From: Puia sp.
Lineage (GTDB): Bacteria; Bacteroidota; Bacteroidia; Chitinophagales; Chitinophagaceae
NCBI GenBank assembly: GCA_035295505.1
Contig: DATGIX010000104.1
Coordinates: forward strand, 10,809 to 74,808
DNA length: 64,000 nucleotides
Direction of reading: 5' to 3'
The translations under genes were made by a program, and so were the position numbers. This document shows positions 503-7,714 of this stretch, in pieces (position 1 is the first letter of the stretch; the number at the start of each line of letters is the position of its first letter). Below the pieces are notes generated by a model. That model saw nothing but the letters and a program-made list of their open reading frames with translations. It ran no database searches and was not told the DNA's origin.

Positions 503-699
503 GTGGGATTCCCGCCTGCGCGGAAATGACGGGGAGAGCACGATTAATCACAAAATGCAAGAATCTTGTAGTTAATGAATAAGCTAATCATCATTCTTAT
601 CTAAGAAAAACTGAGAGTAAAATAAAGAACTATAATCAGAAAGAAGTGAGAAATTTACCACGAAGCTGCACGTCATTCCCGCGCATGCGGGAATCCCAC
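503..699. repeat. Inverted doublet of CGTC-tagged REP/dRS3-like palindromes (503-531 and 671-699)
   Basis: gtgggattcccgcctgcgcggaaatgacg ... cgtcattcccgcgcatgcgggaatcccac; the second copy is an exact ATTCCC-N8-GGGAAT, the first has one mismatch. Confidence 0.9.
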
Positions 700-715
700 C
701 GAACAAATCAACCAC

Positions 716-1006
716 TCACAACTCATCGAATAAATCCTTCCAATCAGGATTCACTTCGATAATCAGTTTTTCTTTCCATTCTCTGTTCCATTTTTTAAGA
801 ATCTTTTCTCTGGCAATTGCATCTTCAATTCTTGAATAACTTTCATAATACACCAATTTGTTGCAATTGTATTTTGCAGTGAATGATTCGGGATAAAACT
901 TTTCTTTGTGCTCCTTTACTCGTGCATATAAATTTGAAGTAACACCGATGTATAATACAGTGTGAAAATCATTCGCCATGATGTATATACAACCGCCGTA
1001 TTGCAT
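716..1006 (-). CDS. Small GIY-YIG nuclease family protein (YhbQ/UPF0213-like)
   Basis: CIYIM...VLYIGVTSNLYARVKEH, FTAKYNCNKLVYYE, AIAREKILKKWNREWKEKLI motifs; 96 aa. Confidence 0.9.
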   Translation of the reverse strand: MQYGGCIYIMANDFHTVLYIGVTSNLYARVKEHKEKFYPESFTAKYNCNKLVYYESYSRIEDAIAREKILKKWNREWKEKLIIEVNPDWKDLFDEL

Positions 1007-1035
1007 GATAAGAATATAGATTGCTCAACAAAAAA

Positions 1036-1186
1036 GTGGGATTCCCGCATGCGCGGGAATGACGACAAACTTCCTGATAAAATTTGACATCATGAATTTT
1101 TGAGCTCGATATAGCAAGTTATTATACACAGTAAATTTTAAATTTACTTAGATAGTAGTACGTCATTCCGGCGTAGGCGGGAATCC
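1036..1186. repeat. Second inverted REP doublet (1036-1064 and 1161-1186)
   Basis: gtgggattcccgcatgcgcgggaatgacg ... cgtcattccggcgtaggcgggaatcc. Confidence 0.9.
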
Positions 1187-1216: not shown

Positions 1217-2230
1217 TCACTTCTTTCTCCTCAACCTCACCGTCGAACTTTGTGTGAGGCTGCTGCTCATATAAACTTCATAACGGTTTTTCCCATCTGA
1301 AATAATCATCAGCGCTGTGTTTGGCGGGATCGTGCCGAGGTTCTCAGCGAACATGCTGATTTCATTCATATCTGTGGTGCTGTCTAATGCAACATATAGG
1401 TTAATGGCTTTTGCAGATAAGCCCTGATGTGATAACACTAATTTATTATTCAGGAAAACAGAAATGCTGTCGCCGTCAATATCACCATTATCATAAAAAG
1501 TTACTTTCACAGAATCACTTTCAATCAGCAAATCTTTATTGTAAATATTTTTTCTCTTGGCATAAGCCTCTGTAATTTTTTTAACATCACTCGCTTCTTT
1601 CAACGGAGTGACATCAGTTGTTTTCAATGGTGGACCGTCAATCGAAATTTTTTTATTCTTTTTTATTTCTTCAAAATTGATTTCTTCTTTTTTAGATTCA
1701 TTAGCACTTACCACAAAATCATCCGGCTGTGGTTTCCACACTTGTTTGCCGGCAACTGCATTTGCCAATGTTTCATTGGTGTTTTCGCTGGTATCAATGG
1801 TGTAAGTAACTCTCAAATCAGGGCAAGTGTATTTATATTTTCCATCGTGATAAAAATGCCCGTTGATTTTTTTCTGCACTGCTGAAACAAATAATGTCCC
1901 GATAAAATCTGTGTTGCACTCAATGCTGTTCACTGTTGAATTCGTTCCATAATAAATAACAGGAATGTCTTGTATCGTTATCTCTTTTGTTTTTGCATTG
2001 TATGTTCCGTGAATGAAAAAACTTTGATACACATCTTTGAAATAATAACCGAAGATGCCTTCTATTTCATCGCCTTTTTGTTTGATGATTAATTCAGTGA
2101 GATAATTGCTAAAGTTGCCAGCCATGTCAACATCTGCTTTTCCATACCACGAGCCGGTGACAGTGTTGTTATTCTGCGCATGGAGAATATGGCAGATGAA
2201 AAGAAAAAGAGGTAGCAGCAGTTTTTTCAT
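1217..2230 (-). CDS. Secreted hypothetical protein
   Basis: 337-aa ORF with signal peptide; C-terminal VTFYDNGDIDGDSISVFLN beta-rich domain. Confidence 0.7.
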   Translation of the reverse strand: MKKLLLPLFLFICHILHAQNNNTVTGSWYGKADVDMAGNFSNYLTELIIKQKGDEIEGIFGYYFKDVYQSFFIHGTYNAKTKEITIQDIPVIYYGTNSTVNSIECNTDFIGTLFVSAVQKKINGHFYHDGKYKYTCPDLRVTYTIDTSENTNETLANAVAGKQVWKPQPDDFVVSANESKKEEINFEEIKKNKKISIDGPPLKTTDVTPLKEASDVKKITEAYAKRKNIYNKDLLIESDSVKVTFYDNGDIDGDSISVFLNNKLVLSHQGLSAKAINLYVALDSTTDMNEISMFAENLGTIPPNTALMIISDGKNRYEVYMSSSLTQSSTVRLRRKK

Positions 2231-2249
2231 GATGTTGAGTTAAATACAA

Positions 2250-2516
2250 TTTCACGCAACGAGGCAACGATTGCAACGAAGCAACGGGTACAAAGAAACA
2301 AAGGAATATTTGAAATCTCATTTTTTAAGACACCCGAATAAATAAGAAAATCTTAAAATGCATCTTCACATATTTTCACGCGACGAGCGCAGAGAATGCA
2401 ACGAAGCAACGGGTCATTAAATTCGCTACGTTCTTATAACTATGATTATTCAGTAAGTATAATACATTCAAAAAAAATCTTTGCGCTCGTTGCCTTCGTC
2501 GCCTCGTTGCGTGAAA
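2250..2516. repeat. Cluster of 8-9-nt periodic repeats (GCAACGA units): two forward arms (2250-2288, 2374-2412) and one inverted arm (2481-2516)
   Basis: tttcacgcaacgaggcaacga... versus ...gcctcgttgcgtgaaa; another copy at 15954-15973. Confidence 0.75.
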
Positions 2517-2520
2517 AAAT

Positions 2521-2546
2521 AAAAAAAGCCCGCTTGCGCGAGGCTT
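2521..2546 (-). terminator. Intrinsic terminator of rpsA
   Basis: Minus strand AAGCCTCGC-GCAA-GCGGGCTT followed by a T-run, 25 bp after the stop codon. Confidence 0.8.
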
Positions 2547-2571
2547 CGAGAAAACTGTGTATGTTATTCTC

Positions 2572-4551
2572 TTATTGCTTAGGTTCTTCGCTGCTGTCTG
2601 CTGCTGCTCCGCCTTTCTCACCTTTCTCTTCCTGTTGCAGTTTTTCTTTAATGCCTGCGAGTGCGCCAAGGTCTCCAAGCGTTGGTTTTTCAACTTTCGC
2701 CTGAATGTTCTTAACAGCTTTGCGTGCATTATCTGCTTCAGTTCTTTCCGCTTTTCTCGCAACTTCTTTTTCTTCTGTTTTCGCTTGTTCCCAAATGCGT
2801 GTGTGGGAAAGAACGATGCGTTTTTCGTTGCGGTCAAATTCAATCACCATGAACTGTGCAGTTTCATCAGCGTTCACTTGCTTGCCATCTTCTTTGAAAA
2901 GATGACGGTTAGGAGCAAAACCTTCGAGACCATAAGGCAACTGAACAAGCGCACCTTTATCATCTTTGCGCGTTACAGTTCCTTCGTGGATAGTGCCGAT
3001 AGCAAATGTTTGCTCGAGCGCATTCCAAGGGTCTTCTTCCAGTTGTTTATGTCCTAATTGCAACTTGCGATTGTCTTTATCGATTCCAAGAATTATCACT
3101 TCGATATTCTGTCCGACTTTTGTGTATTCTGAAGGATGATTGAAACGTTTCAGCCAGCTTAAATCACTGATGTGAATCATGCCGCCGATGCCCGGAGCGA
3201 GCTCAACAAACACGCCGTAAGGAGTGATGTTTTTCACAAGTCCTGTATGCTTGCTATCTTTCGGGAATTTAGTTTCAATAGTGCTCCATGGGTCTTCGCT
3301 TAATTGCTTAATAGAAAGACTCATTTTGCGTGAAGCCTTATCAAGCGTCACTACTTTTGCCTGATGCTCATCACCTAATTTGAAGAATTCTTTTGCATTG
3401 ATAGGTGTGTTTGCCCATGTGATTTCGCTCACGTGAACAAGACCTTCAACACCCGGCATCACTTCGAGGAATGCGCCGTAATCTTCAATGTTCACCACTT
3501 TGCCTTTCACGATTGCACCTTCCTTGATTGTTTCAGGAAGCACATCCCAAGGATGCGGCGTCAATTGTTTCAAGCCAAGGCTGATGCGTTTTTTGCCATC
3601 ATCAAAATCAAGCACAACCACCTGCAATTTCTGGTCAAGCTTCAGCACTTCGCTTGGGTGAGAAATTCTTCCCCAGCTAATGTCAGTGATGTATAATAAA
3701 CCGTCGAGACCACCGAGGTCCATGAACGCACCGAAGTCGGTGATGTTCTTGATAGTTCCTTCAAGCACCTGCCCTTTCTCGAGCTTGCTCATAATCTCTG
3801 CACGCTGTGCTTCGATATCGCTTTCAATAAGTGCTTTGTGAGATACTACCGCGTTCTTGATAGTTTCGTTGATTTTTACAACTTTGAACTCCATCGTTTT
3901 ATTAACGAACTGGTCGTAGTCAGTAACAGGCTTCACATCGATTTGTGAACCAGGAAGGAAAGTTTCCATGCCGAACACATCCACGATAAGACCGCCTTTA
4001 GTTTTGCTGGTAACAGTTCCAGTGACCACTTCGCCTGTTTTGTGAACTTCCACAATGCGCTCCCATGCACGTGTGATGCGTGCCTGTTTGCGGCTCAGGT
4101 GAAGGTGACCTTCTCTGTCTTCTTTTTCAACCACCATCACTTCCACTTCATCGCCCACTTTTAAATTTGGTGTGTCGCGGAATTCATTCAGTGAAACAAG
4201 GCCATCGCTTTTGAAACCGATGTTGATGACAACATCTGTTTTAGTGAGCGCCACAATCAATCCCTTCACCATTTCATTGTCGGTGATGGAAACGAAAGTG
4301 TTGTCGTACACGTTGTCGTACTTTTCCTTTTCTTCCTTCGTGTAAGGAGTAACATTGCGCTTGTCGATGCTCCAGTCAAAATCGTCGTGCGCAGTAACGA
4401 TTCTTTCTTCAACCGGAGGAACAGCCACAACCGGAACAACCTGAGGTTCCGCTGCCGCAGCAACAGGTGCATTTGTTGTCGCTGTAACCTCTGCACTTGC
4501 AGTCGGTTCCTGTCCTTCAGCGTTTGAGTTAACAATATTGTTTTCTGACAT
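2572..4551 (-). CDS. rpsA: 30S ribosomal protein S1
   Basis: Six S1 repeats (e.g. [29 protein letters not shown]); N-terminal HDDFDW motif typical of Bacteroidota. Confidence 0.98.
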
Positions 4552-4899: not shown

Positions 4900-5931
4900 A
4901 TGAGAAAGTATCAACGAGCAATAGTTTTCACAAAAGTGCCTTTAGGAGGTTATTATCGATATAAAGACATGTTCCAAATCTTTCCGGCTGATTTTAAAGA
5001 CATGCCACAAAATCCATATCAAAAGCATTATCCCAATATTTTAGAATATTGGTTTACAGATGATGAAAAAATAATAAGAGAATCAGAGTATGAAAATTTA
5101 AACGAATTATTTACTTCAACTGCAACTATTGTTACCAAAGAAGACAGGATTATATCTCTTTTAAATTCGTTCACTAACAATATTTTTTTCAAATATAATT
5201 ATGAAGGTATATGGGCTATTCCGGTATTATTTGATGTAAACACAAATGTTATATCGGAAGAAATAAATTCATTAACTCCAAAATGGAGTATTAAAACCTT
5301 CCATTTCCCTACTCTCTCAAATCAGCTACAAATAACAAAATTTACCAACCTCTCCTATAGCGAGATAAAGAAGATTGCTCATCTTGAATTTTATACTCGT
5401 TTTCCTAACCTAGATAATGATAACGAACGTTCAATAGTATTTCCAGAGACTTTCGATTCGATTTTGGACTCTTATTTTTCTATAGAAAAAGAATTGCAAA
5501 CTATTATTGACTCTGCTATTGGATATAACATGGCTGCTATCGAGCTTTGGGGACATAAAAAAACTATAGGGTTATTAGCTTCATTTACAGCAGTTGAAAC
5601 AATGGTGAACTTAGAATACCGACAACAAAAAATAGAAAAATGTGAGAATTGTGGACAGTTGAAATTCAGTGTTGCCAAAAAATTTAGAGAATACTTATTG
5701 AAATATATTGGTAGTTCGAATGAAAATAAAAAGAAATTTAATTCCTATTATAACCTTCGCTCAAAAATTGTACACACTGGAGCAAGATTAAAAGCTGAAA
5801 TTTTATTTTCAGAAGTTTCAAAAAAAGAATTAGAAACCGAATACATAACAAGAGTTGAGATATTACAAATTGGTAAACTTTCAATTGCAAATTGGTTACT
5901 CTTAAATACAAAACAAACTAATTTTTTATAG
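4900..5931 (+). CDS. HEPN-domain protein (Apea-like), putative defence RNase
   Basis: C-terminal LLASFTAVETMV helix, CENC motif and YNLRSKIVH (R-X4-H) motif; AT-rich. Confidence 0.7.
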   Translation: MRKYQRAIVFTKVPLGGYYRYKDMFQIFPADFKDMPQNPYQKHYPNILEYWFTDDEKIIRESEYENLNELFTSTATIVTKEDRIISLLNSFTNNIFFKYNYEGIWAIPVLFDVNTNVISEEINSLTPKWSIKTFHFPTLSNQLQITKFTNLSYSEIKKIAHLEFYTRFPNLDNDNERSIVFPETFDSILDSYFSIEKELQTIIDSAIGYNMAAIELWGHKKTIGLLASFTAVETMVNLEYRQQKIEKCENCGQLKFSVAKKFREYLLKYIGSSNENKKKFNSYYNLRSKIVHTGARLKAEILFSEVSKKELETEYITRVEILQIGKLSIANWLLLNTKQTNFL

Positions 5932-7124
5932 CGAGAACGAAGCCATCTGCTTTCAAATTAATACAACCCAAAAATCGCAAGACCAGATTCCCGCCTACGC
6001 GGGAATGACGGCGAGAGCATGAGAAATTTTAAACTTCAGGAATTTTGAAATTACTTCGAGAGTTGCCGTCATACCTGCGCATGCAGGTATCTGGATTTGC
6101 AGAGAAAGATTTTTGCAAACATTAATCAAAACAAAGCTTTCATCAACCCGCACTCCACAGCGCGTAACGAAGCCATCTGCCATTCAAATTAATATGATGA
6201 AATCGCAAGAGCAGATTCCCGCCTACGCGGGAATGACGGCGAGTGCACACGAAATTTCAAACTGCAAGAATTTTGAAATTACTTAGAGGTCAACAGACCT
6301 GTCAGGTTTTTAAAACCTGACAGGTCTGAGCAGCGATTACTAAATTTATTTTGCACCCCACAGCGAGTAACGAAGCCATCTGCTTTTCAAATTAATACAA
6401 TCCAAAAATCACAAGAACGGATTCCCGCCTACGCGGGAATGACGGCGAGAACGTGCGAAATTTTAAATTGCAAGAACTTTGAAACTACTTAGAGAGTTAC
6501 CGTCATACCTGCGCATGCAGGTATCTGGATTTGCGGAGAAAGATTTTTGCAAACATTAATCAAAACAAAGCTTTCATCAACCCGCACTCCGTGGTGAGTA
6601 ACGAAACCATCTGCTTTTCAAATTAATACAACCCAAAAACCGCAAAAGCAGATTCTCACCTACGCGGGAATGACGGAGAGTGCAAACGAAATTTTAAACT
6701 ACAAGAATTTTGAAATTATTTAGAGCTCAACAGACCTGTCAGGTTTTTAAAACCTGACAGGTCTGAACAGCGATTACTAAATTTATTTTACACCACACAG
6801 CGAGTAACGAAGCCATCTGCTTTCAAATTAATACAATCCAAAATCGCAAGAGCATATTTCTCCGCCGCGGCGGACGGGAATGACGGCGAGTGCGCACGAA
6901 ACTTTAAACTGCATGAACTTTGAAATTACTTAGAGGTCAACAGACCTGTCAGGTTTTAAAAACCTGACAGGTCTGAGCAGCGATTACTAAATTCATTTTG
7001 CACACGGTGAGTAACGAAGCCATCTGCTTTTAAATTAATACAACCCAAAAATCGCAAGAGCAAATTCCTGCATACGCAGGAATGACGGCGAGAGCGTACG
7101 AAATTTTAAACTGCATGAATTTTG
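5931..7124. repeat. Mosaic tandem array: six ~125-bp cores alternating with module A or B (order A,B,A,B,B); BIME/NIME-like
   Basis: Cores start at about 5931, 6160, 6363, 6594, 6800 and 7007; each has gcgagtaacgaagccatct and a gattcccgcctacgcgggaatgacg-type REP. Confidence 0.92.
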
Positions 7125-7136
7125 GTTTTTATATTA

Positions 7137-7151
7137 TACCAATTTTTGGTA
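7137..7151. promoter_or_regulatory. Palindromic operator upstream of parD
   Basis: TACCAA-TTT-TTGGTA, 21 bp before the antitoxin ATG. Confidence 0.55.
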
Positions 7152-7172
7152 CTTTTAATCAAACTTATAGTA

Positions 7173-7415
7173 ATGGCTCGCAACACATCTATTTTATTAG
7201 GCGATTATTTTGAAGACTTCATTTCATCTGAAATTTCATCAGGGCGCTATAGCTCTGCAAGCGAAGTTGTGCGCACAGCGCTCAGGCTTTTACAGCAGGA
7301 AGAAATGAAAAAGAAAAACTTATCAAAAGCATTGCTCCAAGGCGAGAAAAGCGGTTTCGTTAAAAACTTCGATGCAAAAGCCAATCTTAAAAAACTTCGT
7401 GCAAAGCACTCATGA
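7173..7415 (+). CDS. parD: Type II antitoxin, ParD family (ribbon-helix-helix)
   Basis: MARNTSILLGDYFEDFISSEISSGRYSSASEVVRTALRLL; ATG at 7173 is more plausible than 7122. Confidence 0.9.
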   Translation: MARNTSILLGDYFEDFISSEISSGRYSSASEVVRTALRLLQQEEMKKKNLSKALLQGEKSGFVKNFDAKANLKKLRAKHS

Positions 7416-7714
7416 AAGCACTGCCTTATGTAATCAGCAAAAAAGCTATTTCCGACCTGGAAGATATCTGGCTTTACACCGCTGATAAATGGTCAATTGA
7501 ACAAGCAGACAGATATTACAACCTGATTTTCGATGAAATATCTTTTATCTGCAAAAACCCAAAGACAGGAAAAGAAATGGAACACGTACGGAAAAGTTAC
7601 AGAGCAGCCAAAGTGAAATCACACCTTATCTTTTACAAAATTGAAAATAACACCATCATGATTGTAAGAATTTTACATGAACGAATGGATATTGAAAACA
7701 GGCTAAATGATTGA
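7412..7714 (+). CDS. parE: Type II toxin, RelE/ParE family
   Basis: YVISKKAISDLEDIWLYT...WSIEQADRY...SHLIFY...IVRILHERMD; ATGA overlap with the antitoxin. Confidence 0.92.
   Translation: MKALPYVISKKAISDLEDIWLYTADKWSIEQADRYYNLIFDEISFICKNPKTGKEMEHVRKSYRAAKVKSHLIFYKIENNTIMIVRILHERMDIENRLND

Follow-up and report, generated by a model that had tools for sequence, protein, structure and literature searches.

The locus and its question

What does a small nuclease gene do between inverted copies of a dispersed hairpin repeat? The question is raised by the left end of a 64,000-nucleotide stretch of Puia sp. DNA, called the window throughout this text. A sequence-only reading of this DNA had described a 96-residue GIY-YIG gene with an inverted repeat doublet on each side, and had placed the nuclease in the position that a RAYT transposase holds in a REPtron, where it might nick or spread the repeat. 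The open reading frame, its PF01541 domain and the four repeat copies are confirmed (Table 1). Very probably the window, from a member of the Bacteroidota, holds a canonical gene of an Ssn nuclease together with the NTS-like hairpins that are its cognate repeats, and the system it represents has already been published.

The Ssn family and the Ssn-related motifs (SRM) were described by Chenal et al. (2025, Nat Commun 16:2388; PMC11893778). About half of the Neisseria dRS3 repeats are a longer, oriented element named NTS, CGTCATTCCCGCGMAVGCGGGAATCYRG. The 94-residue SsnA of N. meningitidis binds NTS solely as single-stranded DNA (ssDNA) and cuts a few nucleotides upstream, on the 5' side; the substitutions Y6A, Y17A and E64A abolish the cutting. 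Binding by SsnA depends critically on the C that follows the palindrome, and cleavage on the three bases that precede it. The same authors likened NTS-ssnA-NTS to an insertion sequence and compared it with RAYT/REP, so the arrangement, which had been taken as new at the present locus, and the analogy drawn for it were both in the literature (PMC11893778).

Table 1. Features of the ssn locus and of the repeat array in the window
Feature	Position (nt)	Strand	Description
Outer left repeat	503-531	minus	Degenerate stem, one mismatch (ATTTCCGCG); fold -5.4 kcal/mol, z -1.3
Inner repeat, stop-codon side	671-699	plus	CGTCATTCCCGCGCATGCGGGAATCCCAC; CGTC tag, perfect ATTCCCGC/GCGGGAAT hairpin, trailing C
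Conserved 3' extension of the 671-699 repeat	through 708	plus	CCACCGAACAAAT
ssn gene	716-1006	minus	96-residue single-domain GIY-YIG nuclease, assigned to the Ssn family
Inner repeat, upstream of start codon	1036-1064	minus	Same 29 nt (CGTCATTCCCGCGCATGCGGGAATCCCAC) as 671-699, inverted
Outer right repeat	1161-1188	plus	Degenerate stem, one mismatch (ATTCCGGCG)
Mosaic array	5931-7124	minus	Six units of ~205-230 bp, one repeat copy each
Array repeat copies	5986-6010, 6214-6238, 6420-6444, 6651-6675, 7063-7087	minus	Five clear copies
Array degenerate repeat copy	near 6855-6883	minus	
Array inverted variant copies	6067-6091, 6501-6525	plus	CGTCATACCTGCGCATGCAGGTATC; two compensatory stem changes

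The nuclease gene and its product

Pfam model PF01541 (GIY-YIG) matches residues 5-79 of the 96-residue protein with an E-value of 9e-14, and the protein has no other domain. A search of NCBIfam returned sub-threshold matches only and no family-level model, and a sequence search of the PDB matched no solved structure. The closest database proteins, at about 70% identity, are entries from Chitinophagaceae, Pedobacter and Arachidicoccus named 'GIY-YIG nuclease family protein'.

The 94-residue GIY-YIG protein of N. meningitidis exhibits 50% identity to the window protein across 88 of its 94 residues (E 3e-30). Residues Y8, Y19 and E67 of the window protein align with Y6, Y17 and E64 of SsnA, and in the alignment Y8, Y19, R29, H33 and E67 are invariant. 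One Neisseria locus encodes a 94-residue protein with Y6, Y17 and E64; this is an exact N. cinerea sequence, and it shares a 90% cluster with the 94-residue proteins of N. meningitidis and N. gonorrhoeae. By the criterion of Chenal et al. 2025 (PMC11893778), a homologue matches with E < 1e-10 and the match covers more than 75% of the query. The window protein lies within these limits, and at 50% it falls short of their strict 60%-identity criterion.

Repeats flanking the gene

Two repeat copies lie on each side of the gene, all of them no more than 215 nt away. The inner copies form a convergent pair with their tags outward, and the gene sits inside the 336-nt spacer between the 29-nt copies; the inverted repeat that they belong to has arms of 49 nt, which are 86% complementary. 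As ssDNA, both inner copies fold into a perfect 8-bp hairpin of -9.0 kcal/mol, with a z score of -2.7 for the copy at the stop-codon side and of -3.9 for the copy upstream of the start codon. The outer copies fold poorly as ssDNA, and at the 1161 copy the canonical hairpin is not the minimum-energy fold. Nt 1161-1198 carry the same 3' extension as nt 671-708 and are 87% identical to nt 670-708, and nt 507-574, beside the outer left repeat, display 66-79% identity to the units of the array at 5.9-7.1 kb.

The dRS3 pattern ATTCCC-N8-GGGAAT is exact in both inner copies and one base off in each outer copy, in keeping with the dRS3, CGTC-tagged type to which the core had been assigned. Compared with the published NTS, the inner repeats show differences at two positions. 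The SRM pattern of the same paper is matched exactly by three array copies, while each of the four flanking copies has one mismatch to it, located at the last, loosely defined position. Seven matches at one mismatch are observed in the window, against a mean of 2.3 in shuffled 64-kb windows.

The repeat family across the genome

The assembly comprises 5.2 Mb in 236 contigs with 38% G+C. A genome-wide count of the repeat, which had been suggested as a check, gives about 33 copies at up to 6 mismatches; about 28 are found at up to 5 mismatches, all with CGTCAT, and the CGTC tag is kept in every genome copy. Twelve of the 33 copies fall within the window's first 7.1 kb, inside 6.6 kb around the gene (binomial p ~7e-27). 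Among 22 distinct genome copies the 8-bp stem is paired in 96% of cells. Compensatory changes occur at three of the eight stem pairs, and none of 500 shuffles matches the observed covariation score; the observed arrangement is therefore real and non-random.

Away from the window the repeat is found either singly or in convergent doublets, of which there are six, with tags outward and spacers of 20-58 nt. This geometry is that of the inner pair enclosing the gene. Neither target-site duplications nor direct repeats are seen at the borders of the doublets. A search of the whole 5.2-Mb assembly for a RAYT/IS200-type gene (Y1_Tnp, PF01797) yielded no match, with control genomes scoring as they should, and the earlier statement that no RAYT accompanies the repeats thus holds for the assembly.

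Many single copies also have in common a module of about 60 nt on the 5' side of the tag, with the form …TTTCAAAATTC..CAGTTTAAA…ACGTTCTCGC directly followed by CGTC. It is present at C103:20673, C173:5279, C195:3914, C197:10055 and C8:21682 and in the window array. An SsnA-type cleavage would fall within this module; the flank at this place in Neisseria has been described as variable.

A second paralogue in the same genome

The genome encodes a second Ssn paralogue on the minus strand of another contig (C232:10064-10351). Its product exhibits 63.5% identity to the window protein and 47% to the N. meningitidis protein. The paralogue is flanked, within C232:9890-10600, by another CGTC-tagged family, CGTCATTTCGA...GAGAAATC, which has a long interior loop. 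This family numbers 26 copies in the genome, mostly arranged as convergent doublets of about 145 bp made of two hairpin subtypes. A third tagged family with the stem ATTGC (CGTCATTGC...GCAATC) has 11 closed copies, and tblastn at E <= 1e-3 found no third ssn paralogue in the genome. Two paralogues and two distinct tagged families within one genome offer a ready pair for tests of the specificity between enzyme and motif.

Homologues in the order

Among 151 genomes of the order, 52 have a homologue of the window gene and the only one from the same genus does not; the gene is thus accessory. A truncated SRM pattern matches at just 3 of 30 homologue loci, because the stems differ between homologues. 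The flanks were therefore examined with a 'closed tag' test, which takes CGTC and ATxyz, followed within 90 nt by the complement z'y'x'AT and a C. In the flanks that were read, clusters of CGTCA(T)-tagged hairpins stand on both sides of the gene, and their stems are locus-specific.

Tagged closed hairpins lie within 1.5 kb of the gene at 23 of 29 homologue loci in the order, and on both sides at 12, so that the flanking of homologues by such repeats, the second check that had been suggested, turns out positive. Their density is 1.18/kb at the loci, against 0.018/kb genome-wide and 0.013/kb in shuffled sequence, an enrichment of about 65-fold. Chenal et al. 2025 (PMC11893778) found at least one SRM within 5 kb of ssnA homologues across bacteria in 71% of cases and on both sides in 42%, and the present survey reproduces these figures. 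The ATTCC-type motif is present at least three times in eleven genomes of the order, and nine of them have the gene (Fisher p 0.001). The stem type follows the protein tree weakly: 18 changes are needed, where shuffling gives 22.6 on average and 18 at the least, on a tree that is poorly resolved and in a comparison that taxonomy confounds.

The nearest copies to the gene show three geometries. The order (+) gene (-) is found at the window locus and at seven others. The order (-) gene (+) is found at 11 of 13 Neisseria loci and at five others, including the closest relative, and at eight loci the nearest copies are in direct orientation. Overall, the nearest copies are inverted at 24 of the 32 loci having copies on both sides.

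The closest relative encodes a protein of 80% amino acid identity. Its DNA homology to the window spans the open reading frame only (window nt 1008-725), starting 2 nt before the ATG and stopping 9 nt short of the stop codon, and on both sides of it the repeat forms mosaics that differ from those of the window. The sharing of the reading frame alone, with repeats arranged differently, speaks against a transposon with fixed ends. An autonomous transposon or IS of the fixed-TIR kind was rejected on this ground, together with the three flank geometries and the target-site duplications, of which none were seen.

The region of the closest relative (metagenome contig L181, nt 1300-3700) lies inside about 2.6 kb of gene-free DNA. 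A scan of it turned up no fewer than 16 copies of the repeat, in two subtypes, an array much larger than that of the window; the copies form regular doublets with a spacing of about 140 bp or multiples of it.

A search for filled and empty sites found no such pair. The orthologue of the 337-residue gene in the congener is 53-56% identical and lacks synteny, hence no empty-site comparison. Another contig that encodes the same protein without any difference agrees with the window at 100% of positions over 4 kb, which indicates the same organism and hence offers no polymorphism.

Neisseria and wider spread

A search of the genus Neisseria with the window protein detects homologues in 21 of 61 genomes. 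Barring one weak match, their identity is 44-55%, and the per-genome E-values range from 1e-22 to 1e-28. The exact motif lies near the gene at all 12 Neisseria loci inspected. In the genome collection CGTCATTCCCGCGNNNGCGGGAATC is carried by more than 120 records; these span many phyla and include N. lactamica and N. dentiae.

The exact 22-base motif CGTCATTCCCGCG-N3-GCGGGAATC occurs in records labelled as Bacteroidota, in Alpha-, Beta-, Gamma- and Deltaproteobacteria, in Dehalococcoidia, Planctomycetes, Verrucomicrobia, Gemmatimonadetes and Nitrospirota, and in others. Such conservation across phyla is remarkable for a non-coding repeat. N. lactamica NS19 has exact NTS copies, and a search for the nuclease there gave no homologue at E <= 0.001; this strain thus has the repeats without the enzyme.

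Identity and proposed activity of the nuclease

The product of nt 716-1006 is very probably an Ssn-family enzyme (CDD cd10448 type, GIY-YIG_unchar_3), and the flanking repeats are very probably its cognate Ssn-related motifs. The assignment follows from the homology, from the catalytic residues and recognition bases that are kept, and from the recurrent association of gene and repeats. It is supported, too, that nuclease and repeats are a functional pair and not chance neighbours.

By analogy with N. meningitidis SsnA, a repeat exposed as ssDNA in the CGTC-to-GGAATC sense would fold into the 8-bp hairpin. The protein would bind the hairpin together with the C that follows it and make a Mg2+-dependent cut on the 5' side of the CGTC tag, at a distance of a few nucleotides. 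It would leave RNA, double-stranded DNA and the opposite strand intact. We infer from the homology that site-specific ssDNA cleavage is the probable activity of the window protein, and the idea that the nuclease may nick the repeats is backed by its likeness to SsnA, an ssDNA cutter that acts a few bases 5' of the tag.

The most likely cellular role, by the Neisseria example, would be the fragmentation of repeat-bearing ssDNA in the course of uptake, conjugation or repair. The nuclease may in addition contribute to the accumulation of repeats in the vicinity of its own gene. To our knowledge, natural competence is not established for the lineage of the window. The copy number of about 33 is low beside the hundreds of copies in pathogenic Neisseria, which makes a genome-wide role, for instance in the control of transformation, less obvious here.

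Relation to known systems

The locus resembles SsnA/NTS in its single-domain GIY-YIG protein of about 95 residues with the catalytic Y, Y and E in place, in a repeat with a CGTC tag, a ATTCCCGCG stem and a trailing C, in repeats on both sides of the gene, in the patchy occurrence of that gene, and in the presence of doublets and mosaic arrays. It differs in several respects: the host is a member of the Bacteroidota with 38% G+C, the repeat copies are few, the nearest tags face outward from the gene and not, as in Neisseria, inward, and in the Puia genome a second paralogue and a long-loop repeat family coexist with the pair.

With the dRS3 repeats and NIMEs of Neisseria and the CGTC-1 family (Di Nocera et al. 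2013, PMC3733652), the repeat shares the ATTCCC-N8-GGGAAT core and the CGTC tag, and the dimers and large intergenic mosaics of those elements are comparable to the array at 5.9-7.1 kb. The difference lies in the phylum and in the spacer modules of the array, which in a rough comparison are unrelated to the Neisseria RS elements.

REPtrons, as summarised in PMC3733652 from the work of Nunvar (2010), Ton-Hoang (2012) and Bertels and Rainey (2011), combine a RAYT (Y1 HUH) with GTAG-tagged REPs or REPINs. The present locus is like them in having a single-copy gene, an enzyme predicted to recognise an ssDNA hairpin, inverted copies of a dispersed repeat that bracket the gene, and doublets and mosaic clusters. 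It is unlike them in its enzyme, a hydrolytic GIY-YIG protein in place of an HUH protein with a covalent tyrosine intermediate, in its tag, CGTC and not GTAG, and in the absence of a Y1_Tnp gene from the genome. Membership of the REPtrons was rejected on these grounds: the gene is GIY-YIG, the assembly lacks PF01797 and the tag is CGTC.

The value of the locus is thus mainly confirmatory: the Ssn/SRM association is reproduced independently, in a soil-type member of the Bacteroidota and with a motif close to that of Neisseria. Three features may be of interest to the Ssn field, namely the two paralogues with their two tagged families, flanks whose geometry is the reverse of the one in Neisseria, and a low-copy repeat that is strongly clustered around the gene.

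Do Ssn nucleases spread their repeats?

The question that the locus raises is one already in the literature. An analogue of a REPtron in the strict sense would be a locus in which the nuclease, replacing the RAYT, mobilises the repeats by excision and re-insertion of singles or doublets, perhaps together with its own gene. This reading is compatible with the Ssn identity, and the dispute concerns the biological role. Much of the locus anatomy agrees with it: the patchy distribution of the gene in the order and its absence from one congener, the inverted copies that bracket it at most two-sided loci, the crowding of 12 of the 33 copies about it, the six convergent doublets elsewhere with the geometry seen around the gene, and a genome without a RAYT. 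CGTC-tagged REPs (type 1 being dRS3) were noted by Di Nocera et al. 2013 to have no dedicated transposase (PMC3733652), and mobilisation of the repeats by Ssn was raised as a hypothesis by Chenal et al. themselves (PMC11893778). Against this stand the variable repeat arrangement with its three geometries, the exclusion of the flanks from the DNA homology to the closest relative, and the failure to see target-site duplications at doublets or to find a filled and an empty site.

The chemistry of the enzyme also bears on the matter. GIY-YIG enzymes hydrolyse DNA without a covalent intermediate; we know of no strand-transfer activity among them, and of no transposition activity for Ssn. A hydrolytic nuclease alone would leave the re-insertion unexplained. 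We regard repeat mobilisation by the nuclease as rather unlikely. The locus anatomy neither proves nor excludes that the nuclease spreads the repeats.

Patchy gene, inverted copies and local repeat excess together fit a selfish or formerly mobile module. In a bolder form of the idea, repeat-ssn-repeat would be a selfish, self-propagating module, a counterpart of RAYT/REPIN outside the HUH enzymes, in which Ssn and the repair or replication machinery of the host copy the hairpins. This is distinctly unlikely in our estimate. If true, the genome would harbour two orthogonal lineages, the ATTCC short-loop repeat with the first paralogue and the ATTTC long-loop repeat with the second, and would be a natural test bed for specificity and co-evolution.

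Could the repeats instead act mainly at the level of RNA or regulation, as terminators, mRNA stabilisers or a promoter barrier, with the nuclease incidental? The hairpins sit between convergent or adjacent genes, and the copy at nt 1036-1064, only 30 nt upstream of the start codon, could affect expression; REPs have such roles in other bacteria (PMC3733652). Yet the conserved CGTC tag and trailing C correspond to what SsnA needs for cleavage and binding, not to what a terminator needs, no T-run follows the hairpins, and SsnA has no action on RNA (PMC11893778). As the best explanation of the locus a regulatory role is very unlikely; it may still exist alongside the preferred one, ssDNA cleavage by an Ssn nuclease at its cognate repeats.

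An unrelated small GIY-YIG protein in a REP-rich intergenic region, be it the remnant of a homing endonuclease or a repair nuclease of the YhbQ/UPF0213 type, is hardly credible and largely refuted: REPs do accumulate in intergenic DNA generally, and the Pfam and NCBIfam assignments are merely generic with no solved structure matched, but the association recurs at the 23 of 29 loci of the order (~65-fold) and at the 12 of 12 Neisseria loci, the repeat type switches with the paralogue inside one genome, and the 50% identity to the characterised SsnA extends along the whole length.

The array at 5.9-7.1 kb and its surroundings

The sequence-only reading had counted the repeat six times in the array, a fair count, since the minus strand holds five clear copies and a sixth that is degenerate. 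The units alternate between those with an inverted variant copy and those with an unrelated 35-bp palindrome, CAGACCTGTCAGGTTTTTAAAACCTGACAGGTCTG, and in every unit the tag is preceded on its 5' side by the conserved module, about 60 nt long.

The array units start with AACGAAGCCATCTGC, which resembles the closing half of another tagged hairpin type that has lost its tag. That hairpin type, CGTCATGGCGAGG..CGAAGCCATC, is seen intact at one homologue locus (L015). The array is bracketed by a 343-residue open reading frame without a Pfam match and a ParD/ParE-like pair, at nt 4900-5931 and 7122-7714, respectively. Nearer to the gene, nt 2250-2516 contain a 30-nt inverted repeat (TTTCACGCAACGAGGCAACGATTGCAACGA) with arms that are 90% complementary and 207 nt apart. 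Together with direct repeats of the GCAACGA type, it lies in or around the gap that extends from the 337-residue gene to the 3' end of rpsA.
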